A DNA stretch of 64,000 nucleotides, taken from contig DBEYOB010000046.1 in assembly GCA_048173955.1 (NCBI GenBank), positions 12,413-76,412 on the forward strand, written 5' to 3'. A program made the translations under genes and the position numbers. Positions 1 to 64,000 of the stretch are shown here, in pieces. Below the pieces are notes generated by a model. The model saw only the letters and a list, made by a program, of their open reading frames with translations. It ran no database searches and was not told the origin of the DNA. Each line of letters starts with the position of its first letter. Position 1 is the stretch's first letter. Source of the DNA: Coriobacteriales bacterium. Its GTDB lineage: Bacteria > Actinomycetota > Coriobacteriia > Coriobacteriales > UMGS124.

Positions 1-387
1 TCGGTAACGGTAAAGCCAGGCACCCATAAACAGGCCCTGCGCGGTTCCCGCCACTGCGCTTCCGATAATGGAGACGGCCCCGCTGTGTAGACCTGATCCC
101 ATCCACAACAACAGCGTTCCCGCGATGGCCGCTGCTGTTCCGATTAGGGCGTAGCGGTTTTCGGGATTCGGGTCGGTGGAGGGTTTGACGAACGAGAGGG
201 CGAAGAACGTCGAGGCGACTGCCGCCTGAAGGCAGATGTGCAGCGGAGCACCTATGTCAATCGGTGCGCCGAACGCGGTGCCACCATGGTTCCACCCGAG
301 CGTTACCCAGGCAAAAAAGAGGCCGAGACTCAGGCAGGCCGACACCGTGGAGACGTGGGGCCCTCGCTGCGTCACCGCTTCACTCAT
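1..387 (-). CDS. Multi-pass membrane protein, N-terminal part only (gene runs off the left edge); probably the sensor domain of a membrane-bound LuxR-type regulator
   Basis: My own reverse-strand translation from ATG 385-387 reads MSEAVTQRGPHVSTVSACLSLGLFFAWVTLGW...AAIAGTLLLWMGSGLHSGAVSIIGSAVAGTAQGLFMGAW and stays open to base 1. Its hydrophobic helices resemble the N-termini of the LuxR membrane regulators at 24224, 44031 and 55014. It lies just downstream of a flavoprotein gene on the same strand. It is absent from the ORF track because it is truncated. Confidence 0.45.
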   Translation of the reverse strand, partial: MSEAVTQRGPHVSTVSACLSLGLFFAWVTLGWNHGGTAFGAPIDIGAPLHICLQAAVASTFFALSFVKPSTDPNPENRYALIGTAAAIAGTLLLWMGSGLHSGAVSIIGSAVAGTAQGLFMGAWLYRYR

Positions 388-725
388 GCTCGAATCATCT
401 CCCTGCAGTCGCTGCATCGGCTGCGTGAAAAACGGGTGTCTGTCATCATGGGACTATTATTGTAGCAACGACCGTCCAAGGGGTGGTGTTTTGGCGATTC
501 GAGGGGACGCTCGATTTCCTTGTGACCCGTCGTAATGGCATCGGACCGGCTTGTCGTAGGATGTTCGGTGCCTATGTGCCGGCGGATACTCGCCACAGTT
601 ACGGTCAGAGTTCGCCCCGCGCAAAACCCGCCCGGCGTTGGATGGAGCGCCGGGCGGGTCCAAAAGGGGGGATGTCGCTTGTTGTCGGAGGGGTTATCGA
701 CGGTGAGGGTCGTTCGCCGGCGCAT

Positions 726-2447
726 TTACTCCCAGGGCTGCAGTGTGGCGATGTGGTTGGCCGCCACATAACCTACGACGTAACCATTGGCGAGTGTTGT
801 TCCGCCGATGGGGTAGCCGCGACCGAGGACGTTGGCGATGCAGCAGCCGCCGGCGTACAGGCGCGGGATGACTTCGCCGCGCACGTTCACGACCTGGGCA
901 TTGGCGTTGATTTCGATGCCGCCGGCGGTTTGAAGCATACCGGGATAGATTTCGGAGCAGTAGAACGGGCCCTCCTTGAGGGGTGCCATGCAGGGGTTCT
1001 TGAGCTCGCCGGACTCCACGCGGGAGGCGTTACCGGCGGTGAAGCGATCCCAGGTGCCCTCGCCGCGATGCCAGTCCTTGTCGACGCCCTCTTCGCACAT
1101 GGCATTCCAGCGTTCGACGGTGGCGAGCAGGTTCTCCTTGTCGATGCCCATGCCGTCGGCCAGCTCTTCCATCGTGTCGAAGACATGGAGCCATTCGGGG
1201 AACTCGCCGGATTCAATCATGCTGGAGAGGGGTTCCACGCCGTTGCCGAAGGAACCTTTGTATGTACCGTCCGAGATGACATAACCGGGGATGTTGCGCC
1301 ACTCACGGCTGCCGGTGTCGTAGGCGTCAAAGGCACGACCGATGAGGTCGTAGCTTGCACCCTCGCAGCAGAAACGTTCGCCGTGCTTGTTGACCATGAT
1401 AGAACCCGTCTGGCCGGGAGCGAGCCATAGAGGGTTCTGCTCTTCAGAGTGGGTTGCCCCGGTGTCGAGCGTCAAATCGACGGAGGCGTAGCGGTCGGGA
1501 TGCTCCTCCATGTTGTAGCACATATTGTACGCTTTGTTCATGTTGCGCATGTTGGCACCGAGTTCGGCAGCCATGACAAGGCCGTCCCCGGTGTTGGTTT
1601 CTACGGCGCAGGTGGAGTAGATGGGGTGGTTAATGTAGTGGCGTACCATCTCGCGGTTGTGATCGAAGCCGCCGGTGCCCAGCACTACCGCGTAGCGTGC
1701 CTTGATGGCGATCTCGTTGCCGTCGGGGTCGGTCGCCCACAGGCCGATGACCTCGCCGTCGCCCAGAGCTGGATTGCCGGCGTAGATGAGCTTGGTGGCG
1801 GCGGTGCCCATCAACACCTCGATGTTGCGGGCCGCCAGGGCGTCCTTGGCGTATTCGGGTAGTGCACGCCCTGAGGATGCTCCGGTTGCCTCGTGCGTGC
1901 CGATGCTGACGTAGGCATGGACGCTGGAGTATTCGTCTTCGATTTCAGGGAAGGGATAGTAGAAATTATAGGGTTGGCCATCAACCATGCCGAACGACAG
2001 CCATCTGTAGCCGCAATCGTTGTTGAGGTAGTCGGCGGCTGCGGCGCAGTTGTCGATCATCATGTCGTCGCTCGACTGTCCTTCGGCGCAGCTTGTGAAG
2101 TAGTCCTTGAGGACGTCTCGGGGAATCTCCGGGCAGCCGGCCTCAAGAGCCATGGAGTTGTTGGGGCACAGCATGCCGCCGCCGGACAGGGCCGTGGTTC
2201 CGCCGAACCAGGTGGGGTGTTTCTCGAGCACGAGCACGTCGAGCCCTGCGTCGTGGGCGCGGAAGGCGGCCGATACAATCGACCCGGTGCCCACGACGAT
2301 CACATCAGTCTCGCGATCCCACTTTTCGGGCATCCAGGACTGACCGGCGGCTTCATCGGCGAGTGCGACTGGTGCGGCCGCGGTTGCCAGGACGGTGCCA
2401 CCTGCCATGCCGGCAGTTTTGACGAACGAACGTCTGCTAAGTTCCAT
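726..2447 (-). CDS. Tat-exported FAD-dependent oxidoreductase (fumarate-reductase-like flavoprotein family)
   Basis: ORF 726..2474, with the start moved to ATG 2445-2447, which has GGAAGGAAGG about 9 nt upstream. This gives the twin-arginine signal MELSRRSFVKTAGMAGG...ALA. It has the dinucleotide-binding motif DVIVVGTGSIVSAA and a C-terminal RLYAGG FAD motif. It is paralogous to 7 other ORFs in the window. Confidence 0.85.
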   Translation of the reverse strand: MELSRRSFVKTAGMAGGTVLATAAAPVALADEAAGQSWMPEKWDRETDVIVVGTGSIVSAAFRAHDAGLDVLVLEKHPTWFGGTTALSGGGMLCPNNSMALEAGCPEIPRDVLKDYFTSCAEGQSSDDMMIDNCAAAADYLNNDCGYRWLSFGMVDGQPYNFYYPFPEIEDEYSSVHAYVSIGTHEATGASSGRALPEYAKDALAARNIEVLMGTAATKLIYAGNPALGDGEVIGLWATDPDGNEIAIKARYAVVLGTGGFDHNREMVRHYINHPIYSTCAVETNTGDGLVMAAELGANMRNMNKAYNMCYNMEEHPDRYASVDLTLDTGATHSEEQNPLWLAPGQTGSIMVNKHGERFCCEGASYDLIGRAFDAYDTGSREWRNIPGYVISDGTYKGSFGNGVEPLSSMIESGEFPEWLHVFDTMEELADGMGIDKENLLATVERWNAMCEEGVDKDWHRGEGTWDRFTAGNASRVESGELKNPCMAPLKEGPFYCSEIYPGMLQTAGGIEINANAQVVNVRGEVIPRLYAGGCCIANVLGRGYPIGGTTLANGYVVGYVAANHIATLQPWE

Positions 2448-3061
2448 AGTAATGGCCTTCCTTCCGTATTTCAATTTGCCTGTTGTCGTTGGCTATCACG
2501 GTGGCGGTCGATTGCGAAAACCTTTGCACCGGTTACGTTCGCCGCAGGAAGTGCATGCCGTGTCAGCCTGGCAACAGCATGGTTGTGAGTGGAGATTCGG
2601 TCACTAACCTATAGGGATGAACGCTGAGCGGAGTTGGATTGGACTGTTTGGTTGGTATTTTTTTGAACAAATTCAAGAAATAGCCGATGAACTGGGTTTT
2701 TAGACAAAAAGGATGAAAAGGTGTGTCATATGGACGCGGTTTTCCGCGTTCTCGGCATGAATGAAAATAGTTGGTCGCTACAATGGTTTCTAAGACAACG
2801 GTATCGCATAGCTGAGTGTGTGGCAAAGAGGATTGGCGGAGGGCCGACTGGTGGCGCAGACAGATTACTGGCAGGGCCGTTCTTTTGTCGGTGTGTTCAT
2901 TGGTTGCCTGAGTTTGGGAATGGTTTTCTGTTGGGCGTCGTGTGTCGCTGGGTCAGGAGGGATTCAGCAGGGTGTCGCAACTTTGTCCGGCATTTCGATC
3001 AATGGGGTGATGGCGAGCCAGAGCGACTTTCTGCTCAGGCTCATGGCCGGTCTTGCGCTTT

Positions 3062-4513
3062 TGGGGACCCCGGACAAAATCTCGGACCGAGCTTGGTCCA
3101 GGAAGGGAGTCCGATGTACACCAAGGAGGAGCGCGAGGGGGTCCTCTGGGAGTTCCACCGCAGCGGGATGAGCGTCCCGGAGGCCTGCCGGCGGCTGCCG
3201 CTTTTCCCGACCCGCCACAACCTGTATCTTTGGCTGAAGATGGAGGAGGCGGGCGAGCTCGCCGCGACCGAGATGCCGGACCGGCCGGAGCGCATGCACT
3301 GCGCCCACGGCGAGGGCAGCCCGAGGTACGCGGCGCGCGCCCGCCGCGGGCGGGAGGGGGCCGGCGGGGCGGCGGAACCTGAGCAGACGGACTGGCGCGA
3401 CTGGGGCGCCGACCTGCCGGAGGACCCGGCGGAGCGCGCGAGGATGGCGGAGGTCAAGCTCGCCGAGGCGCTGGCGGTGTTGGACGTCCTAAAAGCACCA
3501 GGCCCGGCCTCTTTGACCAGCATGGAGAAGTGGCGGGCCGGGGAGCTGGCGCGGGAGAGGAGCCCGCTCGTGAGGCTCGGGGACGTGACCGAGACGCTCT
3601 CGATACCCAAGAGCACCTACCTGGACCAGGCCGCGAGGGCGTCTAGGCCCGACCCCAAGGCCGCCCTGCGCGTGCGCGTGCGCGCCTCCTTCGAGGCGAG
3701 CGGCGGGGCGTACGGCGCCGGGTCGGTGACCGCCGACCTGCGCTCCGGGGAGGGCGAGCCCGTCTCCTGGCGCGACCTGGAGCCCGGGGGCATGTCCGCG
3801 CCCGTCGTCGCCTCCGAGAAGGTCGTGCGGGCGATCATGGCCGAGGAGGGCCTCGTCTCGCGCAAGGCGGCGCAGATGGCGCGCCGCGCGCGGTACTCGA
3901 GCTGCGCCGGCGAGCTCTCCGAGCGCCCCGCCAACCTGCCGCTCGCCGAGGACGGCACCCACGACTTCCACGCGCCCGAGCCCGGGCTGCTCGTCGTCAC
4001 CGACGTCACCGAGTTCAGGCTCGACGGGTACAAGGCCTACCTCTCCCCGGCGACCGGCTGCTTCGACGGGTGGCCGGTGTGCTGGAGGCTGTCCAGGCAT
4101 CCGGACAAGGAGCTCATGGTCGGCATGCTCTCCGACCTCGTCGAGGAGGTCGGGCCCACCGAGGAGAGGCCCCTCGTGCTGCACACCGACGGCGGCTCGG
4201 CCTGCATGACCGGCGACTGGGCGTCGGCGTGCGAGGGGGGCCACGTCGTCCGCTCGATGTCGCGCAAGGCGAGGAGCCCGGACAACGCCCGCGCCGAGGG
4301 CTTCTTCGGCACGCTCAAGTGCGACTTCTTCGAGGGGAGGGACTGGGCGGGCGTGGGCTTCGAGGAGTTCGCCGCCGCGCTCGACCGCTACATCGAGTGG
4401 TACCGCAGCGGGAAGCTCAAGAAGGCGCTGGGATGGAGGACGATCCGGCAGGCCCGCGAGGGGCTCGCGGGGGCGGCGTAGCCGGAATAGTCCGGAAAAA
4501 CGTCCGGGGTCCC
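3062..4513 (+). mobile_element. IS3-family insertion sequence (about 1.45 kb), boundaries +/- 3 bp
   Basis: Terminal inverted repeat GGGACCCCGGAC (3064-3075) pairs with GTCCGGGGTCCC (4502-4513). Each copy is followed 8 nt inward by GGAC/GTCC. TTT occurs on both outer flanks (3059-3061 and 4514-4516), compatible with a 3-bp target duplication. The element encloses a DDE transposase ORF. Confidence 0.7.
3114..4481 (+). CDS. IS3-family transposase (HTH + rve/DDE integrase core in one reading frame)
   Basis: ORF 2721..4481; the start is taken at ATG 3114, which has GGAAGGGAG upstream. The N-terminus MYTKEEREGVLWEFHRSGMSVPEACRRL is HTH-like. The DDE triad context is VVTDVTEF, LHTDGGSAC and NARAEGFFGTLK. 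The part of the ORF upstream of 3114 lies outside the inverted repeat. Confidence 0.85.
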   Translation: MYTKEEREGVLWEFHRSGMSVPEACRRLPLFPTRHNLYLWLKMEEAGELAATEMPDRPERMHCAHGEGSPRYAARARRGREGAGGAAEPEQTDWRDWGADLPEDPAERARMAEVKLAEALAVLDVLKAPGPASLTSMEKWRAGELARERSPLVRLGDVTETLSIPKSTYLDQAARASRPDPKAALRVRVRASFEASGGAYGAGSVTADLRSGEGEPVSWRDLEPGGMSAPVVASEKVVRAIMAEEGLVSRKAAQMARRARYSSCAGELSERPANLPLAEDGTHDFHAPEPGLLVVTDVTEFRLDGYKAYLSPATGCFDGWPVCWRLSRHPDKELMVGMLSDLVEEVGPTEERPLVLHTDGGSACMTGDWASACEGGHVVRSMSRKARSPDNARAEGFFGTLKCDFFEGRDWAGVGFEEFAAALDRYIEWYRSGKLKKALGWRTIRQAREGLAGAA

Positions 4514-8042: not shown

Positions 8043-8525
8043 CTAGCGTCGCTCGACGAGCTGGATGAGCTCCTCGCGGTTGGCCGTCTCGGTCTTCTTG
8101 TAGATGTGCGCGACATGCGTCTTCGCGGTGTTCTTCGAGATGCAGAGCGCGTCGGCGATGTAGTCGAGCTGATGCCCCGACACCCACAGGCGGAAGACCT
8201 CGCGCTCCCGCTCGGAGAGCCCGTGCGCCTGCTCGAACGAGGAGAGCCGCTCGCCGCGGGTGTCGCGGGGTTCTGCATGGAAGTGCGCGTAGCGGATGCC
8301 CCACGATATGCCGAGCAGGAGCAGTGCCGCGGCCGAGAAGATGAGCGAGAGCACGGTGTAGGTGAGAATGTTGGCGGTGACCAGGATGCCCGAGACGGCG
8401 CCGATTGCCACTCCGCCGTTGACGATTGGAAGGGAGAAGCGCCTCCAACTGGTCGGCGTTTCTTTGGGAGTCCGTTCGAGGGCAAGTGCGAGGCCGAGCA
8501 GATAGATGAGATATTCGCACGTCAA
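8043..8525 (-). pseudogene. LuxR-type regulator fragment (last ~3 TM helices + C-terminal HTH); start uncertain, probably a deletion remnant
   Basis: The C-terminus GLSEREREVFRLWVSGHQLDYIADALCISKNTAKTHVAHIYKKT is a LuxR HTH. No in-frame ATG exists downstream of the neighbouring gene; only TTG at 8523-8525, which lacks an RBS. About 160 aa remain, versus 474-551 aa for the paralogs in this window. Confidence 0.45.
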
Positions 8526-8551: not shown

Positions 8552-10300
8552 CTACGGAGGAGGTGGCCCCCGTCGTTTCCGAGGTGAGTCCCTGATGGGC
8601 TCGATGTTGGAGTCGACGACGCGGTGAGAGGCGTCGACGTCGAGGCCGCAGGTCTGGCACAGGCCGGCCGAGAAACCGGTGCTCGAGGAGACGGTCGCGT
8701 AGAACGGCGGGGTGTCGAGCTTGCAGGCTGCGAGCAAGCGCGGATCCTTGGCGAAGTCGGGGTCCTCGCCAGCCGCGCAATACTCCTGATAGCGCTTGAT
8801 CTCGGCAAGGGCGGTTTCCTTCTGCGCGTCGTCCCACACACCGAGCACGTCGACGAGCTCCTCGATGGTCTCGGCGCAGTACACCTGGTAGGTATCGTCC
8901 TGGTTGTTGGCCTCGCCGGGCGCGTCGCCGGGCTTGATCTGGGACATGGTGTCGCACAGCATGGGCCAGTTGTTGGCGTGCGCATAGTCGACGGCGCTGT
9001 GGCAGGGGGGCATCGTGTACACGATGTTCTGCCAGTTGGCGTCGGCGATCGAGACGATCGAGCCCTTGGGTTGGCGCGGGGCCATGTAGCCGGCGCCCTC
9101 GGCTCCGCCGGCGCACTCGTCGCAGAAGCGCAGGCCCTTCTGGTTGAGCAGCAGCGAGCCGGGGCCCCACGGGGCGCTGATGGTGACCTGGCCGGTGTTC
9201 ATGCCGGCGTGCGGGCCGACCTCGATGTGGCCGCCGGCCCACACACCCATGGCGATGGCCGAGCCGTCGCGCTCGTAGAAGATGGGCATGGTGGTGGCGA
9301 GCTCGATGTCGCCGAGCGACTCGGCGAGGTTGCGGTACTCGTCGTTGATATCGCGCAGCATGTCTGCGTTGCCGCCGAAGTCGCCGCCGCTCAGCACGAT
9401 GGCCTTGGTGCCGGTCAGGCGCTGATACGACTCGTCGTCGACGTTCTTTGCGATGACGGACACGACGCGGCCGGAGTCGTCCTTTTCGAGATACTCGGCG
9501 TGGGTGCTGTAGAACCACACGGCGCCGTTGTCGCGGGAGTCCTGGGCCATCTTGTGCATGACGTCGTTCCATGCCCATGCCTCGCGGATCATCGACGGCG
9601 GACGGAAGATGACGGTGCCGGTGTAGTATTTGAAGCCCGAAGGGTCGCTCACCATGAGCTCGCTGGGCGGGCAGGAGCCCACGTGGGAGTTCTCCTCGAC
9701 CCAGTCGGCGCCCATTTCCTCGATGACCTCTTGCAGCAGCGCGCCGGAGTGCTCCACGTAGTCCTTGATGAAGCGCTGGTTGCTGCGGCCGGCGTTGCGG
9801 CGGTAGACCTCGCGGATGAAGTCCTGGCCGTCGGTCTCGGTGGCGCCGTGCTCGAGGGCCCACGGGTTGTTGATGGTGCCGACCTCGCCGCCGATGTACT
9901 GCATGGCGTCTTCGGGCTGGCCCTCGATGACGGCCACACTCAGGCCGTTTTTGGCGCAGGAGCGCGCGGTCCAGGTGCCTGCCTGACCACCACCGACGAT
10001 GACGACGTCGTACGTGCCGCCGTCGGTGACGAGCGACTCGTCGACGGTCGGCTTGGGGGTGCGCCAAGCCGCGGCGGCCTCGCTCTGCCAGCGGTGCGCC
10101 GGCGTGGCGTTCACGGTTTCGGCCTCGGTGCCGCCGTCCACGGAATTTTCCTCCTGCAGCTTGTCGAAGGGGTCTTCCGCCTCGGCGGCAGCCTCGTCTG
10201 CCAGGGCGGCGACGGGCGCGGTGGCCATCGCGGCTGCCGCCAGGGCAGACGCGCCCTTGACGAAGTTGCGACGGGACATGTCCTGCGTCTGGATTTCCAT
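8552..10300 (-). CDS. Tat-exported FAD-dependent oxidoreductase, apparently lacking the conserved C-terminal ~45 aa
   Basis: ORF 8552..10549, with the start at ATG 10298-10300 (GGAAAGGA upstream). It has the signal MEIQTQDMSRRNFVKGASALAAAAMA...ALA and the motif YDVVIVGGGQAGTW. Similarity to the paralogs stops after RVVDSNIEPI, and the ORF then ends in RDSPRKRRGPPPP instead of the P-GL(Y/F)A-G FAD motif. Confidence 0.75.
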   Translation of the reverse strand: MEIQTQDMSRRNFVKGASALAAAAMATAPVAALADEAAAEAEDPFDKLQEENSVDGGTEAETVNATPAHRWQSEAAAAWRTPKPTVDESLVTDGGTYDVVIVGGGQAGTWTARSCAKNGLSVAVIEGQPEDAMQYIGGEVGTINNPWALEHGATETDGQDFIREVYRRNAGRSNQRFIKDYVEHSGALLQEVIEEMGADWVEENSHVGSCPPSELMVSDPSGFKYYTGTVIFRPPSMIREAWAWNDVMHKMAQDSRDNGAVWFYSTHAEYLEKDDSGRVVSVIAKNVDDESYQRLTGTKAIVLSGGDFGGNADMLRDINDEYRNLAESLGDIELATTMPIFYERDGSAIAMGVWAGGHIEVGPHAGMNTGQVTISAPWGPGSLLLNQKGLRFCDECAGGAEGAGYMAPRQPKGSIVSIADANWQNIVYTMPPCHSAVDYAHANNWPMLCDTMSQIKPGDAPGEANNQDDTYQVYCAETIEELVDVLGVWDDAQKETALAEIKRYQEYCAAGEDPDFAKDPRLLAACKLDTPPFYATVSSSTGFSAGLCQTCGLDVDASHRVVDSNIEPIRDSPRKRRGPPPP

Positions 10301-10793
10301 GCTCGAATCCTTTCCCAATCGGTTGCGGCATGCGGTCGCGCGTGGCCGGCGGGCTGGGCGGGCCGGGCGCCTGACTGGCGTCCGACGGGGTCCGGGTGCA
10401 CGTGCGGGAATCGGAGGCGCGGGACCCGAAAACGTGCGGCCCGAAACCGCGACCCGACGCCAGGAGTCCAGAGCCCGAAGGCGGGGCGATCCGCATGCCC
10501 TGCGGACGATGTCGATGATGGGGCGCGGGCCGCGGCTCGTGTATCCCATCGGGTTCGTGATTCACGCGATGACGGGAACCGATGGCAATTCACCACGGAG
10601 ATATGATGGCATGCGAGCAGGCATTTCAAGGTGCCGGCGGGTCGAAAGGGTCGCCGAACGTTCTCCGCGCGCGGATCGGCGGGGGTCGAGGCGAGGGGGC
10701 GGCAGGGGCGGTTGCGCGCGAACAGCGGGCGAACGGCGGACGGAGCCGCGCGGGAGGCGGATGGCAGTCAATGAAAATCAATAGCGAAAATAT

Positions 10794-14890: not shown

Positions 14891-15151
14891 GGTCGTCCTC
14901 TCTGTGCGCGTGGGGCGGCATCGTGTTTCCCGCGCGGCGACGTGCCCCTCCGCCGCCGTGCACGAACATTGTATGCCGGGGGTGTCCCGCACGCCACGGT
15001 TTCCTGAAACTTGTTCCCCCGCGCGGGGTGGCGTTCGCGCGGGGCGGCGTTCGACTGGCAAGGCGGCGTTCGCGCGGGGCGGCATTCGACCGGAGGGGCC
15101 GGATGCCGCAGCTGGCGGGACGGCGCGCTTCGGTTTGCGGGGCCGAAAGCC

Positions 15152-16048: not shown

Positions 16049-16194
16049 GGCACGTGATTCTGCAGGTGAGGGGTGGACGTTTTGCGGCCGAGTGCGTGAT
16101 TCTGCAGGCGGTGATGGTCGTTTTGCGGCCGAGTGCGTGATTTCCAGAAAGTGATGGTCATTTTGCCACCGAATGCGTGCGGAAAATGGCCGCC
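16049..16194. repeat. Degenerate ~41-bp tandem array (about 3.6 units) forming the left part of the R1 element
   Basis: The units start at 16049, 16090, 16131 and 16171. Each begins G(A/C)(G/A)(T/C)GCGTG and ends GGTC(G/A)TTTTGC(G/C)(G/A)CC. Confidence 0.7.
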
Positions 16195-16360
16195 TACGGG
16201 TGCGGTTCGCTCTTGGCGGGTAGCGGCGGCTCGTCTACCAGGCATTTCGCTATGGGGTCAAGAATAAGAGGGGAGCACGCCTCCCTTTCCCGCACGCACT
16301 CGCTGGTTTTTTGACCGGTACTTTTCCGGAAACACGCACTCGGCTCCCGATTGACCACCG
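16131..16360. repeat. R1 repeat, copy A (230 bp), MITE-like with ~31-bp imperfect inverted ends
   Basis: It aligns base for base with 21700-21929 with only 3 mismatches (at 16200, 16227 and 16289). The inverted ends are CGAGTGCGTGATTTCCAGAAAGTGATGGTCA and TTGACCGGTACTTTTCCGGAAACACGCACTCGG. Confidence 0.9.
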
Positions 16361-17382: not shown

Positions 17383-17496
17383 GGCCGCCGCCTTTCGACG
17401 AGAGCGCTCTTTCAGAGGCGCAAACCGATGCCAGTATGGTAACGGCCCTTCCGTTGCTGCGCACAATGCGCAGGTGACCACTCCTGTCAAATAGCT

Positions 17497-20103: not shown

Positions 20104-20108
20104 CCACC

Positions 20109-20732: not shown

Positions 20733-20802
20733 GGGGTACGTGTAAGGCAAGCTTCCCGCCGAGGTGGCTTGCTGTTCCTGTTGGAGCGTGTTAGAAAAGC
20801 GT

Positions 20803-20848
20803 GGGGATGCGGGCGCGTTGGTTTACCGGCTGCCCGCATCCCCGTTTT
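20803..20848 (+). terminator. Rho-independent terminator-like hairpin between the FeS subunit and chaperone genes
   Basis: Perfect 12-bp stem: GGGGATGCGGGC (20803-20814) pairs with GCCCGCATCCCC (20832-20843). It is followed by GTTTTCC. Confidence 0.55.
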
Positions 20849-20971
20849 CCTGCATGCCCGTCTATCTTGCGCATGTCCGCCCCTCTCGATGGCTGCCATC
20901 GGCGGAAGCCGGTGTCTCTGATGCCCGCTTTGCCACAGGCCGGATTTGCCCGAACCTTCAAGGAGGTTTTC

Positions 20972-21595: not shown

Positions 21596-21699
21596 CCGAG
21601 GGTAAGGGGACGGGTGGGCTGTGAGCCGACTGTGGCGAGTGCGGGCTGCCTATGGAGCGGATGCACGTGCCCACCGTTGGAGATGACCATTTTCGGCGC

Positions 21700-22143: not shown

Positions 22144-22191
22144 CTGCGCGCCTGCGCGCCTACGCGCCTGCGCGCCTACGCGCCTACGCGC
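22144..22191. repeat. Octanucleotide tandem repeat CCT(G/A)CGCG x 6
   Basis: Six contiguous 8-bp units were read directly from the sequence. The last unit overlaps the stop codon (22184-22186) of the flavoprotein gene. Confidence 0.7.
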
Positions 22192-25648: not shown

Positions 25649-25696
25649 GGGGAAGGGCCACCGAAGGGGGAGCCGCTGCATGTGGCTGTGCTGTAC

Positions 25697-37853: not shown

Positions 37854-37856
37854 CTC

Positions 37857-54661: not shown

Positions 54662-54867
54662 CGAGTGCGTGATTCTGAAAAAATGCCGGTCAAAAAACCA
54701 ACGAGTGCGTGCGAAAGCATGCCCCTGCGAACCCCGTCGGCGATGGCCCGTATGCAAAGCCGCAGGTAGAGCGTGTGACATCGGGAAAAGGGGGCGCCGG
54801 CGTCCCGGAACGAGCATACATTCGCCGTCCAATTGACCAACACTTTTCCAAAAACACGCATTCGCGG
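54662..54867. repeat. Diverged third member of the R1 repeat family (inverted-repeat bounded, ~206 bp)
   Basis: 54662-54716 matches the reverse complement of 16291-16347 at about 80 percent by eye. 54831-54867 (TTGACCAACACTTTTCCAAAAACACGCATTCGCGG) matches 16311-16344 in direct orientation. Confidence 0.4.
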
Positions 54868-55013: not shown

Positions 55014-56669
55014 CTAGCGCGCCTCGCGTTCGTACAGGTCGATGAGCTCCTGCTTCCCGCCCACGCCCGCCTTGCGGTAGATGTGGGCCGCATGGGTCTT
55101 GACCGTCCCGGCGGTCACGTAGAGCTGCTCGGCGATGAAGGGCAGGCTGCGCCCGCGCAGCAGGTAGGCGCACACCTCCGCCTCGCGCCTGGTCAGGTCG
55201 TGGCGGGACGCGAAGGCGTCGAGCGCCCCGGGAACGTCGGGTCCGCCGTCGGAGCCGGCAAGGTCTCCGTCGGTGCTGCCCGGCTTTCCGTCGGCGCCGC
55301 CTGGTCTCGCGCCGCGGCCATGCCCGCCTTCGCAGCCTCCGCCCGCGCCGCCTTCTCCGGATGCTGCCGTGCGTGCCCGCGGTCGTGCCTGGGCCTGGGT
55401 TTGGGCGGCGTCCTCCTCCAGGGCGGCAAGCCGGTCCGACAGCGTCTCGGCCATCATCACGAGCAGAAAGAAGAGGACGAACACCCCGCCCGCGCATGCC
55501 AGGGTGAGCCAGGCCTCGTGTGCTGCGGTGCCGCTGAGCGCGCGGCCGAGCACGTTTCCCGCGAACACGACGCCGCCGATGAGGCCCTGGCCCACGCCGA
55601 ACGACAGCAGCGGCGAGGCCCCCGTCAGCTGGGTCGCCTCGGTGACCTTGAGCATGACGAGCGCCTGCAGGAAGATGCTCGCCCCGTTGACCATGGCGCC
55701 GGCGAGCGCGCGCTCTCCGGCGGGGACCGCGATGATGAGGAGCATGCCGAGCACCGCGAAGGGAAGGCAGTAGCGGTAGAGCCGCTCGACGCCCACGCGC
55801 CTGCGCTCTTTGGGGACCAGCACGATCGCGGCGCACGTGATGCACCCGCACACGAGGAACCCACCGGGGAACATGACGGCCGCGCCGTTGTAGGTCGAGC
55901 CCATGAGCAGCGCGGTGGCGAGGTTGCCCACCAGCGCGGTCGCGGCGAAGAGCGCCATGGTGCGCCACGGGAGGACGCCGATGTCGGCCGACCCCTCCGC
56001 CGCCTCGCCGAGCAGCGGCCCGCTCGGCGTCCGCGAGGGCCAGACCTCCATCGTGAGCCGGTGGCGTCGCCACGAGTCGACGAGCCACAGACCGCCCGAG
56101 GCGAGCGGCAGCACGTAGGCGAGCAGGTGGGCGCAGGCCGTCGGGAGGCAGAGCGAGACGAGGTAGAGGACGTAGCCGAGCAAAAAGGACAGCAGGACGG
56201 GGCGGCGCATGTCCCGAGATCCCAAGGAGAAGCGCGCGCCCCAGGCGACGGTGAGCACCATGCCGCCCACCCCGTAGAGCACGCCGCAGCCGACGATGGC
56301 GGCGACGGGCGGCTCCGCTGCACTCAGCATGAGCGCGATTGCGAGGGACGACAGGGCAAGCAGGCCGGCCGCCCCCACGACGGTGGCGGGGGAGAGGTTC
56401 GGGCGCCAGCGCCCCATGGCGACGGCGATCAGGATGCCCAACACGAGCATCGTGAGCTGCGAGGCGTAGTAGGCGAACTCGATGCTGATGCTGTCGACGA
56501 CGTCCTTGGAGGGGAAGAGGGCGGACGAGAGGTTGGCGACGTAGCCCCACGCCCACAGGCACGCCGCGCCGGCGACGGTGCAGGCGGTCGAGCTCCGCCG
56601 GGGCCGTTCCGCCCGCGCGCCGCGCGAAGGCGTCGGCGATGATGAGCCGGGTGTGCCCGTCTGCTGCAC
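55014..56669 (-). CDS. Membrane-bound LuxR-family regulator
   Basis: 551-aa ORF starting at GTG 56667-56669, with GGAGG 5 nt upstream. Multiple TM helices are followed by a Gly/Ala-rich linker. The HTH is LTRREAEVCAYLLRGRSLPFIAEQLYVTAGTVKTHAAHIYRKAG. The gene is divergent from the flavoprotein at 56908. Confidence 0.8.
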   Translation of the reverse strand: MQQTGTPGSSSPTPSRGARAERPRRSSTACTVAGAACLWAWGYVANLSSALFPSKDVVDSISIEFAYYASQLTMLVLGILIAVAMGRWRPNLSPATVVGAAGLLALSSLAIALMLSAAEPPVAAIVGCGVLYGVGGMVLTVAWGARFSLGSRDMRRPVLLSFLLGYVLYLVSLCLPTACAHLLAYVLPLASGGLWLVDSWRRHRLTMEVWPSRTPSGPLLGEAAEGSADIGVLPWRTMALFAATALVGNLATALLMGSTYNGAAVMFPGGFLVCGCITCAAIVLVPKERRRVGVERLYRYCLPFAVLGMLLIIAVPAGERALAGAMVNGASIFLQALVMLKVTEATQLTGASPLLSFGVGQGLIGGVVFAGNVLGRALSGTAAHEAWLTLACAGGVFVLFFLLVMMAETLSDRLAALEEDAAQTQAQARPRARTAASGEGGAGGGCEGGHGRGARPGGADGKPGSTDGDLAGSDGGPDVPGALDAFASRHDLTRREAEVCAYLLRGRSLPFIAEQLYVTAGTVKTHAAHIYRKAGVGGKQELIDLYEREAR

Positions 56670-56907
56670 GGAGCCTCCGTTTCTCGCGTCCGGTGCGTAA
56701 AGCCGGCTTTAAGGACGGGGACGCCGGCGGGTAATGATAGAGTCATAATACACCTCTATCTACCTGCATGTTTATAGAATATCTGCCATTTCGGCAGATG
56801 CCTTCGCCCCGGGGTTTGAGGCATGATCGGCCTGTCGGGCGGCGCATGCGCGCCGCTTTCTCGCGCCCCTCGCACAATGCGGGAGGACGGACCAAAGGAG
56901 GAACGCC

Positions 56908-58611
56908 ATGGACAAGATCAGCTCCAAGCCGGTGAGCCGCCGCACGTTCATCACCACCGCCAGCGCCACCGCGGCCTTTGCGGCCGCCGCCAGCGCCGCC
57001 GGCATCGCCCTGGCCGACGAGGCCGCCGAGTCGGCCGACTCCAGCAAGCCGGTCGCCGAGGGCTCCCTCGCCGGCGAGCAGGCTGTCGCCGGCACCGCCA
57101 ACGCCAGCTTCCCCACCAACGACCCCAACCTGTTTGCCCCCTGCGCCGCCGGCGAGGGCGAGATCGCCTTTGTGGCCGAGCCCATCGCCGACGACGAGAT
57201 CGTGGCCACCTACGACGTCGACGTCGTGGTGTGCGGCCTGGGCCACGCCGGCACGCTGGCCGCCCTGTCCTGCGCCGACCACGGCCTGAACGCCGTGGCC
57301 GTCGAGAAGCGCGGCATCGCCAACGTCTGCTCGGCCACCATCGGCGGCACCACCTCCAAGCTGCACCAGTACTGGGGCGTCTCCTTCGACGAGAAGGAGT
57401 GGCTCGACGACGCCATGACCGACTGCGGCTTCCGTGGCAACATCGATCTGTACAAGCGCTACCTGGCCTGCAACGGCGAGGCCGTGGACTGGTACGTCAG
57501 CCACTTCGAGGGCAAGACCGAGGAAGACTTCCCGCTGACCTTCGCCGCCGGCGACTTCCCCGACTTCCGCGACTCCTACGACGTGACCTCGCTGTCGCGC
57601 TCGTGGAACACCTCGCTCAACCTCCCCTACACCCCCGGCGAGATGGCCGAGCTGCTGCCGCAGTGGATCGAGGCCGCCGGCGCGACGATTCGCTGGGAGA
57701 CCCCGGCCTGCCAGCTCGTGACCGACGAGTCGGGCGCCGTGACCGGCGTCATCGTGAAGAGCGCCGACGGCTATGAGAAGTACAACTGCGCCAAGGGCGT
57801 CGTGCTCGCCACCGGCGGCTACGGCTTCAACCTCGAGAAGCTGCAGCGCTGCTGCCGCCCGCGCGACCTCGCCCTGTGCGGCTGGATGAGCCCCTCGATG
57901 GGCAACACCGGCGACGGTCACGAGATGGCTGTGGCGATCGGCGCCATCGAGGACGAGTACCCGCACCCCCTCATGCTCGACCCGCAGCAGCTCATGCCCT
58001 ACCTGCGCGTGAACAAGCTCGGCAAGCGCTTCACGCCCGAGTATGAGCCCTACAACCACCTCGCCAGCGCCATCCAGGCCCAGCCCGGCGCGTGCGACTA
58101 CTACATCGTCGACGGTGACATCGCCAACAAGATCGACGCCATCTGGACGCCTTCGAGCTCCTGCTACGGCCCCAAGGACGTGTGGGTTGCCGCCGCGACC
58201 AGCGAGAACGCCTTCAAGGCCGACACCCTCGAGGAGCTCGCCGAGCTCATGGGCGTGCCCGCCGACGCGTTCGTCGAGACCATCAACCACTGGAACGAGA
58301 TGTGCGACGCCGGCGAGGACACCGACTACCACTTCCCCGGCTCGATGATGGCCAAGATCGACACCCCGCCGTTCTACGCCACCCTCGAGGGCGCCGAGGC
58401 ACTCTCCACCGCCGGTGGCCTGCAGGTCGACATCCACTCCCGCGTGCTCGACAGCAACTTCCAGCCGATTCCCGGCCTGTTCGCCATCGGCCTGACCTCG
58501 GGCGGCATGTTCCAGAACACCTATCCGCACAACCTGAACTGCCTGTCCCACACCCGCGACTGCACCTTTGGCTACCTCGTGGGCAAGTACCTCTCGGGCG
58601 ACGAGAGCTAA
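56908..58611 (+). CDS. Tat-exported FAD-dependent oxidoreductase (fumarate-reductase-like flavoprotein family)
   Basis: 567-aa ORF with an AAAGGAGGAA RBS. It has the signal MDKISSKPVSRRTFITTASATAAFAAAASAAGIALA, the motif VDVVVCGLGHAGTLAA and PPFYAT...IPGLFAIGLTSGG. Confidence 0.9.
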   Translation: MDKISSKPVSRRTFITTASATAAFAAAASAAGIALADEAAESADSSKPVAEGSLAGEQAVAGTANASFPTNDPNLFAPCAAGEGEIAFVAEPIADDEIVATYDVDVVVCGLGHAGTLAALSCADHGLNAVAVEKRGIANVCSATIGGTTSKLHQYWGVSFDEKEWLDDAMTDCGFRGNIDLYKRYLACNGEAVDWYVSHFEGKTEEDFPLTFAAGDFPDFRDSYDVTSLSRSWNTSLNLPYTPGEMAELLPQWIEAAGATIRWETPACQLVTDESGAVTGVIVKSADGYEKYNCAKGVVLATGGYGFNLEKLQRCCRPRDLALCGWMSPSMGNTGDGHEMAVAIGAIEDEYPHPLMLDPQQLMPYLRVNKLGKRFTPEYEPYNHLASAIQAQPGACDYYIVDGDIANKIDAIWTPSSSCYGPKDVWVAAATSENAFKADTLEELAELMGVPADAFVETINHWNEMCDAGEDTDYHFPGSMMAKIDTPPFYATLEGAEALSTAGGLQVDIHSRVLDSNFQPIPGLFAIGLTSGGMFQNTYPHNLNCLSHTRDCTFGYLVGKYLSGDES

Positions 58612-60558: not shown

Positions 60559-62400
60559 TTACTCTTCGGTCGCGGCAAAGAGTCCGGCGATGTAGCCGCT
60601 CGTGATGACGCGGCCCAGGCCGTGGATGCGCTGGCCGCCCGAGGATTCGCCGGCGCAGTACAGGCCGGGGATGACCTCGCCGAACAGGTCCATGACCTGC
60701 ATCTTGCGGTTCACACGCAGGCCGGTGGTCGTGTCGTGGAAGCCGGGCGTGGACCAGGCGGCGTAGAAGGGCGGCGTGTCGATCGTCTCGGTCATGCCCT
60801 CCTTGCCGAAGTCCTCGTCGGTGCCCGCCTCGGCGAGCTCGTTGTAGCGCTCGACGGTCGCGACCAGGGTGGCCGGGTCCATCTCGATCTGCTCGTAGTA
60901 CTTGTTGACGATCTTTCCGGCGAGCTCCTCGAGCGTGTCCGCCTCGAAGAAGCGGCCGTCTGCGCGGTCGACGGTGGTGTCGTCGATGGTCCACTCCTCG
61001 CGCTCGACGGCCTTGGCGTCGAAGATCGTCCAGATGGGGCCGCCGTAGCGGTGCAGCTCGCCGTCGTCGGGGTCGACGGTCAGGACGCTCGCGAAGGCCG
61101 CCTTGTTCCACTCGGTGCTGCCGTCGGCCTCGTTGGCGAAGCGCTCGCCGAGCATGTTGACCTGCAGCAGGTTCGACCAGTCGTACACGCGCAGGCCCGT
61201 GGCGCGGCTCAGCTTGAAGAGCGGCGAGGTGGGGTACACCGTGGCGAACGAGTCGGTGTACTGCGTGCCGATCATGGCCGCCTTGGTGAGGAAGCTGTCG
61301 TCGACCACCTGGTTGGCGACGTCGCCCAGGCAGGCGCCGATCGCCATGGCCGCAATCTCGCCCGAGGCGTCCTTGGGGCAGAACGGGTCGCCCGAGGTGC
61401 AGTCGTACTCGACGGTGCGGCGCGGGTCGATCATCGTGCGGAAGTACACGTTGCCCGAGGAGCCGCCGGTGCAGATGATGACGGCCTTGTTCGCCTTGAC
61501 GTTGACCGTTTCCTTGGCCTCCTCGATGTTGCCGTCGGAGAAGGGGCTGAGCGGGGCGAGGGGCTCGGTCTCGCCGGGCAGGATGGTGGGCGAGTAGTGC
61601 GCCTGGACGCCGAGCACGCGGCCGGAGAGGTTGCCCTCGCGGTAGATCTTGTCCATGTGGTAGTTCATGAGGAACTGGGCGCCGGCCTCGCGGGCGGAGC
61701 GCTCGAGCGGGCGGGTCAGCCCGATGCCGCAGCGGTCGATGAGGGCGCCGTCCTGCGAGGGCGACAGGTAGTCGGCGTAGGAGACCCAGTCCTCGGTCGC
61801 CTGGTCGGTGAAGGTCCAGCGGGGGACGGTCTCGGGGTCGGTGCCGCCCTGCGTGTAGTCGTCGCCCTGCTTGATGGGCTCGACGTCGCGCACGATGACG
61901 CCCTTGTCCTGGATGTACTCGTAGGCCTCGACCATGTGGTCGGCGACGGAGCGCACGTAGTCGCGGTCGTTGTAGATGGATTGGCCGGTCTGGTTGGTGG
62001 TGTGGTCGATGTAGTACTGGTCGGGGGAGTCCTCGATGCCGTACCTCTTCTGGATCTCGGTACCGCAGCCGGAGTGCAGGTTGCCGCCGGAGAGCGCCGC
62101 GCGGCCGCCCACGTCGTAGTTGGCGTCGACGAAGATGACGGTGAGGCCCTCGTCGAGGCAGCGCAGCCCGGCGGGCAGGCCGGCGCCGCCGGCGCCGAGC
62201 ACCACGACGTCTGCCTCGTAGTCCCAAGCGACGTCGCTCGCGTCGGCCGTGTCGCCGCGCACGAGGTCGCCGTCGGTGACCTCGATGTTGGCGTCGACGT
62301 CGGCCAGGGCGGTGCCGGCGAGGGCGCCGGCCGCCGCGGCGCCGGCGACGCCGCATGCTGCGCCGCGCAGGAAGCTGCGGCGGGAAACGGTTTCTGACAT
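60559..62400 (-). CDS. Tat-exported FAD-dependent oxidoreductase (fumarate-reductase-like flavoprotein family)
   Basis: ORF 60559..62676, with the start at ATG 62398-62400. It has the signal MSETVSRRSFLRGAACGVAGAAAAGALAGTALA, the motif ADVVVLGAGGAGLPAG and PPFYAAW...IPGLYCAGESSGG. Confidence 0.85.
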   Translation of the reverse strand: MSETVSRRSFLRGAACGVAGAAAAGALAGTALADVDANIEVTDGDLVRGDTADASDVAWDYEADVVVLGAGGAGLPAGLRCLDEGLTVIFVDANYDVGGRAALSGGNLHSGCGTEIQKRYGIEDSPDQYYIDHTTNQTGQSIYNDRDYVRSVADHMVEAYEYIQDKGVIVRDVEPIKQGDDYTQGGTDPETVPRWTFTDQATEDWVSYADYLSPSQDGALIDRCGIGLTRPLERSAREAGAQFLMNYHMDKIYREGNLSGRVLGVQAHYSPTILPGETEPLAPLSPFSDGNIEEAKETVNVKANKAVIICTGGSSGNVYFRTMIDPRRTVEYDCTSGDPFCPKDASGEIAAMAIGACLGDVANQVVDDSFLTKAAMIGTQYTDSFATVYPTSPLFKLSRATGLRVYDWSNLLQVNMLGERFANEADGSTEWNKAAFASVLTVDPDDGELHRYGGPIWTIFDAKAVEREEWTIDDTTVDRADGRFFEADTLEELAGKIVNKYYEQIEMDPATLVATVERYNELAEAGTDEDFGKEGMTETIDTPPFYAAWSTPGFHDTTTGLRVNRKMQVMDLFGEVIPGLYCAGESSGGQRIHGLGRVITSGYIAGLFAATEE

Positions 62401-62486
62401 GGCAATGCACCTTTCTGAAGGGTGCCCGGCGCGGCGGCGTGCCCGCATCGCCGCGCCGGGCGTCTGGTTGGGGTCGGATCTGCGCG

Positions 62487-64000
62487 CTACCTGGTCGCCA
62501 GCATCTCGCCGATCGTCATGTCCTGGGCGAGGGCCTCGCCGATGAGCTGGCCGTACACCAGGGAGCGGCCCGTGGAGCAGCCGGGGCAGTGCACCGGGTA
62601 GTTGAAGCCGAAGAAGTCGCCCTGGCAGTTGCCGGCGGCGAAGAGGCCCGCGATGGGCTGGTCGTCGTCGGTGCACACCTGCGAGTCGTCGTTCACGTGC
62701 ACGCCGTAGGCGACGGCGAGGTTCGAGGCGTAGATGCGCGTGGCGTAGTAGGGGGCGGTCGTCAGCGGGTAGAGCATCTGCTCAACGACGCCGAACTGGG
62801 AGTCCACGCCCGCATCGCAGGCGGCGTTGTACGCCTCGACGCTGGCCACGAACGCCTCGGTGGGCACGCCGATCTTCTCAGCGAGCTCCTCGAGCGTGTC
62901 GGCGCTCACGAGCGTGCCGTTCTCCAGGCGTTCCTCGATCTCGCCGGGAATCGTCTCGAGCATGGTCTCGTAGCCTTGCGGGAACTGCTTCTCCACATAG
63001 GTGGCGTAGGCGCCGTCGAAGATCGACCAGGCGATGTTGCCCTTGGAGTTCATGCGCGCGTCGGTGATGAACGGCTCGAAGGGCATCTCGTTCATGAAGC
63101 GCTCGCCGTCGCTGTTCACCGCGAGCATGCTCAGGAAGAACGGCGTCATGTTGTAGCTGCGCGTGGCGATGGTGAACTGGTGGATCATGGGGGCCGCGGG
63201 GCTCTTGGAGATGCCGCCGCCGATCCACTTGGTCATGAGGATGGCGTCGCCGGTGTTGGCGCCGATGGGCAGGTAGGCGCTCTCGTCGGCGCGGTTGGCG
63301 ATGGGCGCCCAGCAGTCCACCATCTCCTGGTTGCCGGAGATGTCGCCCGTGCACAGCACCACGCCCTTGGCGGCGTTGAACTGGATGTGGTTGCCCTCGG
63401 CGTCGGTGGCGACGACGCCGGTCACGCCGTCGGCCGCGCTGCCCACGAGCTGCTCGGCGTGCGTGTTGAAGAAGAACTGGCAGCCGTTCTCGGTGGCCGA
63501 GGCGATGAGCACGTCGCCGAGGTTCTGGTGCGGCTCGAGGCCGTCGGTGCGGAAGATGCCGAACTCGGCGCTGCTGAAGCGCACGGCGTCCTGGAACACG
63601 ACGTAGCGCTCGGGCATGGTGTCCCATCCGGCCTTGGAGGTGCCGCCCGTCGAGGGCTCCACGGTCGTGTCGTACTCGGCGCACAGGTCGGTGATGTAGT
63701 CCATGACGGGGCCGGTCTGCTCGGCCCAGGTGCGGATGAGGTTGTAGTTCGCGGTCTGCTGCGAGGCGGCGTACATGAGGCGGGCGGCCTCGAGCGGGTC
63801 GATCTCGATGCCGTTGTCGGCGAGGACCTTGCTGCCGATGGCGCACATGTCGAGGCCGCAGAAGCGCCCCTTCTCGCCGCGCTCGATCACGGCGACCGAC
63901 GCGCCGCTGCGCGCGGCGGCCTGGGCGGTGCCCATGCCGGCCATGCCGCCGCCCACCACCACGATATCGAAGTCGTAGGTCTCGGCGATGTCGGTGATGG
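62487..64000 (-). CDS. FAD-dependent oxidoreductase of the same flavoprotein family, 5' end beyond the right edge
   Basis: The track ORF starts at an internal Met. The reverse-strand frame stays open to base 64000 and reads ...ITDIAETYDFDIVVVGGGMAGMGTAQAA, a dinucleotide fold. The C-terminal motifs are APYYATR and IAGLFAAGNCQG. Confidence 0.85.
   Translation of the reverse strand, partial: ITDIAETYDFDIVVVGGGMAGMGTAQAAARSGASVAVIERGEKGRFCGLDMCAIGSKVLADNGIEIDPLEAARLMYAASQQTANYNLIRTWAEQTGPVMDYITDLCAEYDTTVEPSTGGTSKAGWDTMPERYVVFQDAVRFSSAEFGIFRTDGLEPHQNLGDVLIASATENGCQFFFNTHAEQLVGSAADGVTGVVATDAEGNHIQFNAAKGVVLCTGDISGNQEMVDCWAPIANRADESAYLPIGANTGDAILMTKWIGGGISKSPAAPMIHQFTIATRSYNMTPFFLSMLAVNSDGERFMNEMPFEPFITDARMNSKGNIAWSIFDGAYATYVEKQFPQGYETMLETIPGEIEERLENGTLVSADTLEELAEKIGVPTEAFVASVEAYNAACDAGVDSQFGVVEQMLYPLTTAPYYATRIYASNLAVAYGVHVNDDSQVCTDDDQPIAGLFAAGNCQGDFFGFNYPVHCPGCSTGRSLVYGQLIGEALAQDMTIGEMLATR

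Follow-up and report, generated by a model that had tools for sequence, protein, structure and literature searches.

A stretch of 64,000 nucleotides from a Coriobacteriales bacterium (GenBank assembly GCA_048173955.1, contig DBEYOB010000046.1, positions 12,413 to 76,412 of the forward strand; hereafter the window) carries eight genes for exported flavoproteins and five genes for membrane-bound LuxR-type regulators. The window is likely part of a reductase island, composed of modules in which a flavin adenine dinucleotide (FAD) enzyme exported by the twin-arginine translocation (Tat) pathway is accompanied, in most cases, by its own 12-helix membrane LuxR regulator. The arrangement is a further example of a system published for Eggerthella lenta, by which these bacteria can respire many compounds from diet and host; it is found here in a little-studied genus and does not change the current picture of that system. 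What is new is the concentration of modules in one region, their loss at the level of strains, two candidate operators, and the predicted major facilitator superfamily (MFS) fold of the sensors.

Eight Diverged Flavoproteins

The window has a G+C content of about 66%, at which long spurious open reading frames (ORFs) are common; coding frames were chosen by third-position GC and then checked against Pfam. The FAD_binding_2 domain (PF00890) was found in eight loci, F1 to F8 (Table 1), with E-values from 3e-21 to 4e-51. A six-frame scan with hidden Markov models (HMMs) built from the window proteins returned the same eight loci and no further flavoprotein fragments, in agreement with the eight genes counted in a first-pass annotation of this DNA. 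The seven flavoprotein N-termini that lie in the window all display a twin-arginine motif ([ST]RRxF) and, after it, a hydrophobic stretch and a cleavage site of the ALADEAA type (A-x-A). The F8 gene is cut by the window edge and is not truncated; its 555-residue product on an ENA scaffold displays the same signal, so that all eight flavoproteins carry the signal for the Tat export proposed in that annotation. The Pfam TAT_signal model gives a weak match on F2 and F4.

Pairwise identities among the flavoproteins are 24-31% over 350-620 residues, and the strong divergence claimed for them at first pass is thus borne out, with no near-identical duplicates inside the window. Recent local amplification of a single reductase gene is already refuted for the eight window genes, every pair of which falls in this range. 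F1 and F6 are nearest to different solved enzyme families, the best NCBIfam models differ among the paralogs, and orthologs of F3 and F6 are present in other genera (those of F6 in Adlercreutzia caecimuris and Eggerthella timonensis, at 68% identity). What amplification has in its favor is F0, a flavoprotein gene just left of the window whose product is 70% identical to F1; this pair, one member of which is outside the window, is the sole fairly recent duplicate seen in the cluster.

Comparison with curated NCBIfam models places the paralogs near several families. The best model for F1 is 3-ketosteroid-delta-1-dehydrogenase (NF009478), at 290 bits against a cut-off of 789, which marks the nearest family and falls short of membership; its nearest solved structure is a 3-oxosteroid 1-dehydrogenase (7p18, 8.6e-44). 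F3 and F2 score best against vinyl phenol reductase (VprA for F3), with 218 and 85 bits, respectively, against a cut-off of 600. Flavocytochrome c (TIGR01813, cut-off 285 bits) is the best model for F6, at 147 bits, and for F4, F5, F7, and F8, at 69-165 bits; the highest score against this model is that of F7 (165), and the others range from 64 to 161. The nearest solved structure for F6 is the Shewanella urocanate reductase UrdA (6t85, 1.2e-28). Judged by sequence, no window paralog is an ortholog of urocanate or fumarate reductase. At its C-terminus (47800-48104), F5 bears an acidic tail that comprises about 60 residues, is rich in Ala, Glu, Gly, and Pro, and varies in length among strains (683-689 aa alleles).

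F4 lacks HMM positions 331-491, corresponding to about 160 internal residues that are present in the paralogs. A nonsense codon at its end (stop at 31516-31518, followed by an ORF in the same frame) was considered and rejected: the normal C-terminal motif of the family is present at the end of the protein, F4 is 449 aa long in many assemblies, and the ORF that follows has a start of its own and encodes a cytochrome c. By these features of its sequence, F4 is a complete compact variant and no pseudogene. The six-haem cytochrome c encoded directly downstream, which is 321 aa long in 33 cluster members, is likely the electron donor of F4.

Table 1. Positions of the enzymes, regulators, candidate operators, and other features in the window
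Feature	Position	Strand	Description
F1	726-2447	-	573 aa; Pfam 7.6e-47; Tat motif SRRSFV; KstD-like branch
F2	8552-10300	-	Pfam match, including TAT_signal; last 47 codons lost
F3	22184-23914	-	576 aa; Pfam 5.9e-43; divergent from R3
F4	30169-31518	+	449 aa, compact; Pfam match with TAT_signal
F5	46035-48104	+	Pfam matches on both halves; in-frame TAG at 47505-47507
F6	56908-58611	+	567 aa; Pfam 3.8e-51; divergent from R5
F7	60559-62400	-	613 aa; Pfam 4.2e-32; Tat motif SRRSFL; second gene of F8-F7 tandem
F8	62487-64000	-	Pfam 1.4e-40; cut by window edge; full gene 555 aa (ENA scaffold_268)
R1	1-387	-	first 129 codons of a 467-aa gene; three hydrophobic segments; downstream of F1, same strand
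R2 remnant	8043-8525	-	160 aa; last membrane helices and LuxR helix-turn-helix; GerE 4.1e-14
R3	24224-25648	+	474 aa; 12 membrane helices; GerE 4.9e-14
R4	44031-45602	-	523 aa; about 12 hydrophobic segments; GerE 5.6e-13; divergent from F5
R5	55014-56669	-	551 aa; 12 membrane helices, disordered linker, helix-turn-helix; GerE 1.2e-10
Candidate R5 operator	56781-56799		perfect palindrome ATCTGCC-ATTTC-GGCAGAT between R5 and F6
Candidate R3 operator	24043-24107	+	two copies of the 17-bp TCACCNNNNNTTCAYGA in the F3-R3 intergenic region
Membrane-anchored six-haem cytochrome c	31654-32619	+	Pfam Cytochrom_c3_2; six CxxCH; N-terminal hydrophobic helix
Deletion junction	8594-8598		1,253-bp deletion joining F2 3' end to R2 interior; flanks share 5 bp
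IS transposase (rve integrase core)	2721-4481	+	Pfam rve, HTH_21
LysR regulator	16459-17490	-	Pfam match
Tat-exported molybdopterin oxidoreductase	17626-20103	+	Pfam match; Tat motif TRRSFV
4Fe-4S protein	20109-20732	+	Pfam match
NarJ/TorD-like chaperone	20801-21595	+	Pfam match

Membrane LuxR Regulators with a Predicted Transporter Fold

The GerE/LuxR helix-turn-helix (HTH) domain (PF00196) was identified by Pfam in four window ORFs (R2, R3, R4, and R5; 4e-14 to 1e-10), and the six-frame scan revealed no LuxR fragments beyond the listed loci. The fifth regulator, R1, is represented in the window by its membrane N-terminus; the full gene on an independent scaffold (ENA scaffold_202) encodes 467 aa with a GerE domain, confirming the count of five adjacent membrane LuxR genes made at first pass. 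All five adjoin a PF00890 gene. The orientations given for them earlier (three pairs divergent, two co-directional) are correct, and the F5 start has to be moved from 46029 to the ATG at 46035. Counting a 491-aa LuxR encoded about 1 kb past the window edge for the F8-F7 tandem, seven of the eight window flavoproteins are LuxR-associated. The exact 523-aa product of R4 is on record elsewhere.

R3, R4, and R5 possess 10-12 hydrophobic segments before the HTH, consistent with the multi-transmembrane (TM) sensors expected from the earlier annotation, and the 160-aa R2 remnant falls below this number. The three proteins are alike in the HTH only (37-49% identity over about 65-90 residues). Likewise, hhalign aligned the R5 family with the last third of R3, with the HTH of R4 alone, and with nothing in the R1 N-terminus. 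With sequence similarity limited to these parts, a shared fold is testable by modelling only. AlphaFold models computed from alignments of homologs gave 12 membrane helices followed by the HTH for both R5 (predicted local distance difference test score, pLDDT, 80.8; predicted template modelling score, pTM, 0.74) and R3 (pLDDT 89.8; pTM 0.85). A disordered linker of about 50 residues (429-477) separates helices and HTH in R5, and the corresponding low-confidence gap in R3 is much shorter.

Foldseek searches of the PDB with these models returned MFS-type transporters (MelB, OxlT, VMAT, GLUT, PepT, and FLVCR) as the best 50 matches listed for R5 and likewise for R3, with probability 1.00, E-values of about 1e-5 to 1e-6, and target-normalised TM-scores of up to 0.70. 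The sensor domains of R3 and R5, unalike in sequence, are thus predicted from the models to share an MFS-transporter fold. The text of Dong et al. 2022 (PMC9734109) makes no mention of fold, MFS, transporters, native operator, or LuxR binding sites, and a literature search on LuxR together with MFS found no paper making that link.

Conserved Pairs and Candidate Operators

Two of the divergent pairs recur as neighbours in other genomes. R5 and F6 are also divergently encoded in A. caecimuris and on a metagenome contig (L085), where F6 orthologs of 68% (A. caecimuris) and 72% identity adjoin full-length R5 orthologs of 37% and 44% identity. R3 and F3 are divergent neighbours in two other assemblies (L094 and L095), with F3 orthologs that are 78% and 81% identical and paired R3 orthologs that are 61% and 51% identical. 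Over the same genome pairs (L083, L085, L094, and L095), amino-acid identity is 37-61% for the regulators versus 68-81% for the enzymes, so that divergence is much faster on the regulator side.

The palindrome between R5 and F6 (Table 1) is kept in A. caecimuris and L085, and its arms change in step between genomes. Among 92 loci compared, the pattern TCTNCC-N5-GGNAGA was found in R5-F6 intergenic regions only, and its sole occurrence without mismatch in the window is likewise in the R5-F6 intergenic region. The F3-R3 intergenic region holds two copies of TCACCNNNNNTTCAYGA, at 24043-24059 and 24091-24107, whose starts are 48 bp apart; these are two matches in the window versus 0.01 expected by chance. 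The same pair, spaced 46-48 bp apart, recurs between the orthologous genes in L094 and L095, and outside F3-R3 regions one other match occurs in the other 93 loci. The palindrome and the repeats are candidate operators of R5 and R3, respectively. Because both pairs are conserved as neighbours, each with its own intergenic motif, the comparison of sequences supports, for R5-F6 and R3-F3, the dedicated sensors suggested at first pass. No shared motif stood out in the region upstream of F2, and no inverted repeat was found in the R4-F5 intergenic region.

Proposed Model and Counterarguments

In the model that we propose, each module would supply an FAD enzyme that is exported in folded form via the Tat pathway to the outer face of the cell membrane, where it may reduce one class of organic compounds as terminal electron acceptor. 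Electrons would be drawn from the membrane electron-transport chain, probably via membrane-anchored multi-haem cytochromes such as the neighbour of F4. Most modules would also encode their own one-component regulator, comprising a 12-helix domain of predicted MFS fold, a disordered linker, and a cytoplasmic LuxR HTH. The membrane domain may sample an extracellular compound in a transporter-like pocket; a conformational change could then let the HTH bind a private operator in the intergenic region, and transcription of the neighbouring reductase gene would be activated. The direction of the enzymes, their substrates and electron donor, the sensing of ligands, and the role of the motifs as operators are put forward on the strength of published work on the Eggerthella lenta regulators DadR, CadR, and HcdR and on the flavin reductases of that species.

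A wider proposal is more tentative and may not hold in all its parts together: the sensor half of the 12-TM LuxR regulators would be an MFS-fold "transceptor" fused to a DNA-binding domain, their private operators could be found by comparing orthologous intergenic regions, and nearly the whole Senegalimassilia set of secreted flavin reductases would lie in one region of about 80 kb that is remodelled module by module. If true, the transceptor reading would give a concrete model for how 12-TM LuxR regulators read extracellular substrates.

Several observations weigh against this reading of the window. None of the eight paralogs reaches a curated NCBIfam cut-off, so that none is assignable to a known enzyme, in keeping with the first-pass expectation that they do not all fall into clades of known function. 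The family closest to F1, that of the 3-ketosteroid dehydrogenases, is known to act oxidatively. For all eight enzymes, the window contains a single cytochrome gene. F4 adjoins that cytochrome and has no LuxR neighbour. In a metagenome-assembled genome (MAG; GCA_048503055.1, locus L082), an F6 ortholog lies in an unrelated neighbourhood, and the adjoining LuxR is no R5 ortholog, so the pairing is not obligatory. Lastly, the MFS assignment comes from predicted models with moderate TM-scores (0.45-0.70), and Pfam at E <= 0.01 gave no MFS family for R3, R4, or R5, with a weak GRP match on R5 as the sole hit besides the HTH.

The L082 locus shares with the window the F6 coding sequence alone (L082 10001-11692 versus window 56925-58611; 93.6% nucleotide identity), the flanks being unrelated, and a one-mismatch copy of the R5-F6 palindrome is present upstream of the F6 ortholog. 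Horizontal transfer was considered as the origin of F6 in this MAG and is not clearly indicated, with nucleotide identities of 93.6% for F6 versus 88.4% for F3 in the same MAG.

The flavoproteins could instead be extracytoplasmic detoxifying or oxidative enzymes, such as steroid or cyclohexanone dehydrogenases, that work without energy gain. F1 matches best the models and structures of 3-ketosteroid-delta-1-dehydrogenase, no paralog reaches the fumarate/urocanate reductase cut-off, and F6 lacks the two adjacent, possibly catalytic arginines that UrdA has in the aligned ELERRD stretch. Such a non-respiratory function is nonetheless unlikely: all eight flavoproteins are Tat-exported like the characterised respiratory flavin reductases, whereas the non-respiratory members listed in the literature lack signal peptides (Little et al., bioRxiv 10.1101/2022.12.26.521950). 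In addition, respiration with such enzymes has been shown for the anaerobe family that forms the host lineage (Little et al.), and F4 has a haem electron-transfer partner beside it.

That the LuxR genes are chance neighbours or regulate something else, with a membrane domain that is a working transporter, appears very improbable, given that two pairs are kept divergent in other Eggerthellaceae-type genomes, each with a conserved intergenic motif, and that in E. lenta such LuxRs have been shown genetically to activate the adjacent gene (Dong et al. 2022, PMC9734109). The F6 ortholog of L082 without an adjoining R5 ortholog, the retention of an intact F2 without any LuxR in strain L090, and the predicted sensor fold itself, which is that of a transporter, speak in favor of such an accidental association.

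Loss of Individual Modules

Sensor-enzyme modules of the proposed reductase island have been lost individually in particular strains. The decay reported at first pass, one truncated gene and one nonsense codon, is real and more extensive than stated, as a single 1,253-bp deletion has hit both F2 and R2. F2 in the window ends with ...IEPI, followed by 13 out-of-frame, unrelated residues, and covers HMM positions 2-528 of 576. Intact F2 alleles in other assemblies are 609-616 aa long and continue ...IEPIPGLFALGN...; they were retrieved by cluster look-up, and a scan of metagenome contigs with F2 retrieved only a 31% relative. Alignment by blastn with the related strain L092 equates L092 1645-4048 with window 11000-8594 and L092 5302-7885 with window 8598-6000. 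The window therefore lacks L092 4049-5301 (1,253 bp), a loss that takes away the 3' end of F2 together with two-thirds of R2 from its 5' side and leaves the 160-aa LuxR remnant. The truncated F2 allele is also present in a second assembly (P0363), which differs elsewhere in protein sequence, and the deletion is thus real. A longer R2 allele (P0404) is found in another strain. The R2 remnant has probably lost its activity, since DadR function requires both the membrane and the DNA-binding domain (Dong et al. 2022, PMC9734109).

Other strains have lost different parts of the same module. L092 retains the F2 3' end and the LuxR region in an already frameshifted state, with F2 called as two ORFs. 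In L090, F2 is intact, but L092 4338-5869, the whole LuxR, is missing. L090 also lacks 206 bp directly upstream of F2 (window 10288-10493), the deletion ends sharing 11 bp; this second deletion may have removed the F2 promoter or operator.

The in-frame TAG of F5, the nonsense codon of the earlier annotation, occurs in this assembly only. HMM coverage is contiguous over it (positions 3-457, then 458-572), and most of the other listed cluster members are 683-689 aa long, with MGMEEGVAAN where the window encodes MGMQ*GVAAN, a change that amounts to two substitutions (GAG GAG to CAA TAG). Recoding at this stop was rejected, as TAG is no selenocysteine codon and Glu occupies the position in seven intact alleles inspected. 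The F5 stop reflects either a mutation particular to this strain or a sequencing error; the ENA scaffold begins at about window 47765 and thus past the TAG.

Relation to Known Systems

A family of LuxR regulators with 10-12 TM helices was defined by Dong et al. 2022 (PMC9734109). Flavin enzymes are encoded near 50 of its 83 members in E. lenta, and more than 98% of the regulator clusters lack an assigned function. Genetic work in the same study showed that three members, DadR, CadR, and HcdR, switch on the adjoining reductase genes when the substrate of the enzyme is present (Dong et al. 2022, PMC9734109). The window regulators resemble this family in their C-terminal GerE HTH after 10-12 helices, in their position beside a Tat-exported reductase gene, and in having membrane domains that are nearly unalike in sequence between paralogs. 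The difference is that DadR, CadR, and HcdR control molybdenum catechol dehydroxylases, whereas the five window regulators adjoin flavoproteins in a different genus, and the flavoprotein-adjacent class was counted (50/83) but not studied by Dong et al. 2022 (PMC9734109). Regulator phylogeny has already been used for substrate prediction in a 2024 study.

Secreted flavin and molybdopterin reductases number in the tens to hundreds in Eggerthellaceae genomes; they are induced by and specific for their electron acceptors, and 64 E. lenta reductases neighbour transmembrane regulators (Little et al., bioRxiv 10.1101/2022.12.26.521950). The window flavoproteins share with the secreted flavin reductases of that study (UrdA, IrdA, Crd, and Cir) the combination of PF00890 with signal peptides, the occurrence of many deeply diverged paralogs, and neighbouring transmembrane regulators. 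They differ in that the window holds no ortholog of UrdA or fumarate reductase and in that a single region of about 80 kb brings the genes together. Clustering of this kind was not found described in the main text of Little et al. (bioRxiv 10.1101/2022.12.26.521950) by the terms "island" and "colocal...".

F4 and its cytochrome recall the E. lenta pair Cgr1/Cgr2, in which a Tat flavoprotein is likewise co-encoded with a membrane-anchored multi-haem cytochrome c, a likeness of gene arrangement. The order is reversed: cgr1 precedes cgr2, whereas in the window the flavoprotein comes first and the cytochrome second. A 12-TM LuxR is encoded near cgr2 (PMC9734109), and no LuxR is found next to F4. 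No match bearing the name Cgr2 was present among the NCBIfam and homolog matches.

For the sensors, precedents exist in MFS-type transceptors (UhpC of E. coli and Snf3/Rgt2 of yeast) and in membrane one-component regulators (ToxR and CadC), in which a membrane domain senses an external compound and controls transcription. UhpC signals via UhpB/A and Snf3/Rgt2 via Yck/Mth1, which are separate proteins, and elsewhere the sensor is a periplasmic domain. Unlike in these systems, the predicted MFS domain of the window regulators is fused directly to a DNA-binding domain.

Which molecules of dietary, host, or drug origin can be reduced by gut Coriobacteriia is determined by enzyme-sensor pairs of this kind, with digoxin, lignans, cinnamates, and itaconate as published examples, and eight uncharacterised enzymes from a little-studied genus are added here. 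They come with experimental handles: predicted operators for reporters, a transporter-like sensor model for ligand-pocket mutagenesis, and natural loss-of-function alleles (F2/R2 and F5) that can be linked to strain phenotypes. The upside would be modest should the transceptor model and the operators hold.

Genomic Setting of the Island

A UniRef protein fragment from Senegalimassilia anaerobia shares 96% identity with the PFOR encoded in the window. By this similarity, the host genome is that of a Senegalimassilia-like gut member of the Coriobacteriia, and both the lineage and the Cgr2-family link drawn in the earlier annotation agree with the literature. Senegalimassilia is placed in the Coriobacteriaceae by NCBI versus the Eggerthellaceae in GTDB strings (table of Little et al., bioRxiv 10.1101/2022.12.26.521950). 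The exact window proteins are encoded on an 86,446-bp NCBI contig and on two ENA scaffolds of one metagenome.

These scaffolds extend the cluster on both sides. Left of R1 lie F0, a MerR gene, and a further flavoprotein gene; F0 (L093 9723-11474) is located about 1.3-3 kb left of window position 1, and R1 stands between F0 and F1 on the same strand. Right of F8 follow small DUF2442 and DUF4160 genes and then the 491-aa LuxR gene on the strand of F8 (ENA scaffold_268), beyond which a 530-aa LuxR gene is divergent from another Tat flavoprotein gene. Over window and scaffolds together, about 80 kb thus hold at least 11 genes for flavoproteins and 7 for LuxR regulators. Representative Senegalimassilia genomes encode 8-11 flavin reductases each, versus 65 in E. 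lenta (Supplementary Table 2 of Little et al., bioRxiv 10.1101/2022.12.26.521950), so that, if the strain is typical, the region would contain most or all of its flavin reductases. Most gut genomes encode fewer than five such reductases in total (Little et al., bioRxiv 10.1101/2022.12.26.521950), and the eight in the window are therefore more than expected by chance.

The region could also have been acquired by horizontal transfer as a mobile island, instead of being a hot-spot native to the chromosome. An insertion sequence (IS) transposase gene stands at a break in gene order, where homology to the related strain L090 ends (window 4513). Several modules are flanked by repeat families, and module-sized indels distinguish strains. 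Set against these points, GC content along the window varies only from 63% to 71% without a sharp boundary, scans with Rfam and for tRNAs found no RNA gene and no tRNA gene in the window, and neither an integrase besides the IS transposase nor conjugation genes were identified in it. The housekeeping genes for PFOR and RlmA lie inside the region, and gene order is largely common to other strains. A mobile origin is thus quite unlikely, and a native hot-spot of reductase modules is preferred. F1-R1, the module left of the transposase gene, is rare, with 8 cluster members versus 35-70 for the remaining flavoproteins.

A second respiratory-like reductase type is present in the island in the form of a molybdopterin oxidoreductase operon (17626-21595), the proteins of which match NCBIfam models of the dimethyl sulfoxide reductase family, all with scores below cut-off. 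Direct repeats of about 240-250 nt that are 96-98% identical (16110-16360 and 21679-21929) enclose the LysR gene and this operon and could serve as module boundaries for recombination; a 52-nt piece of them recurs at 54662-54714, between PFOR and R5. A second, intergenic repeat family of about 150-250 nt has copies at 25695-25837, 27673-27914, 29683-29934, and 33462-33710, in both orientations and with 68-87% identity. It flanks a SEC-C-motif gene and a Schlafen/AlbA_2 gene, with one copy upstream of an aldo-keto reductase gene, and has no Rfam match.

Between reductase modules lies a cluster of cytoplasmic redox genes (33582-41661) encoding an aldo-keto reductase with a fused 4Fe-4S domain, EtfB and EtfA (the latter carrying a ferredoxin domain), an FAD-linked oxidase, and an AMP-binding enzyme similar to PaaK; the cluster may specify an electron-bifurcating dehydrogenase that supplies the respiratory chain. 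Finally, the minus strand at 13370-15085 encodes a protein of about 510-570 aa that is rich in Ala, Asp, and Glu. A signal or membrane anchor is predicted for it, Pfam gives no match, and part of the sequence is duplicated internally (13631-13882 versus 14237-14488, 72% identical).

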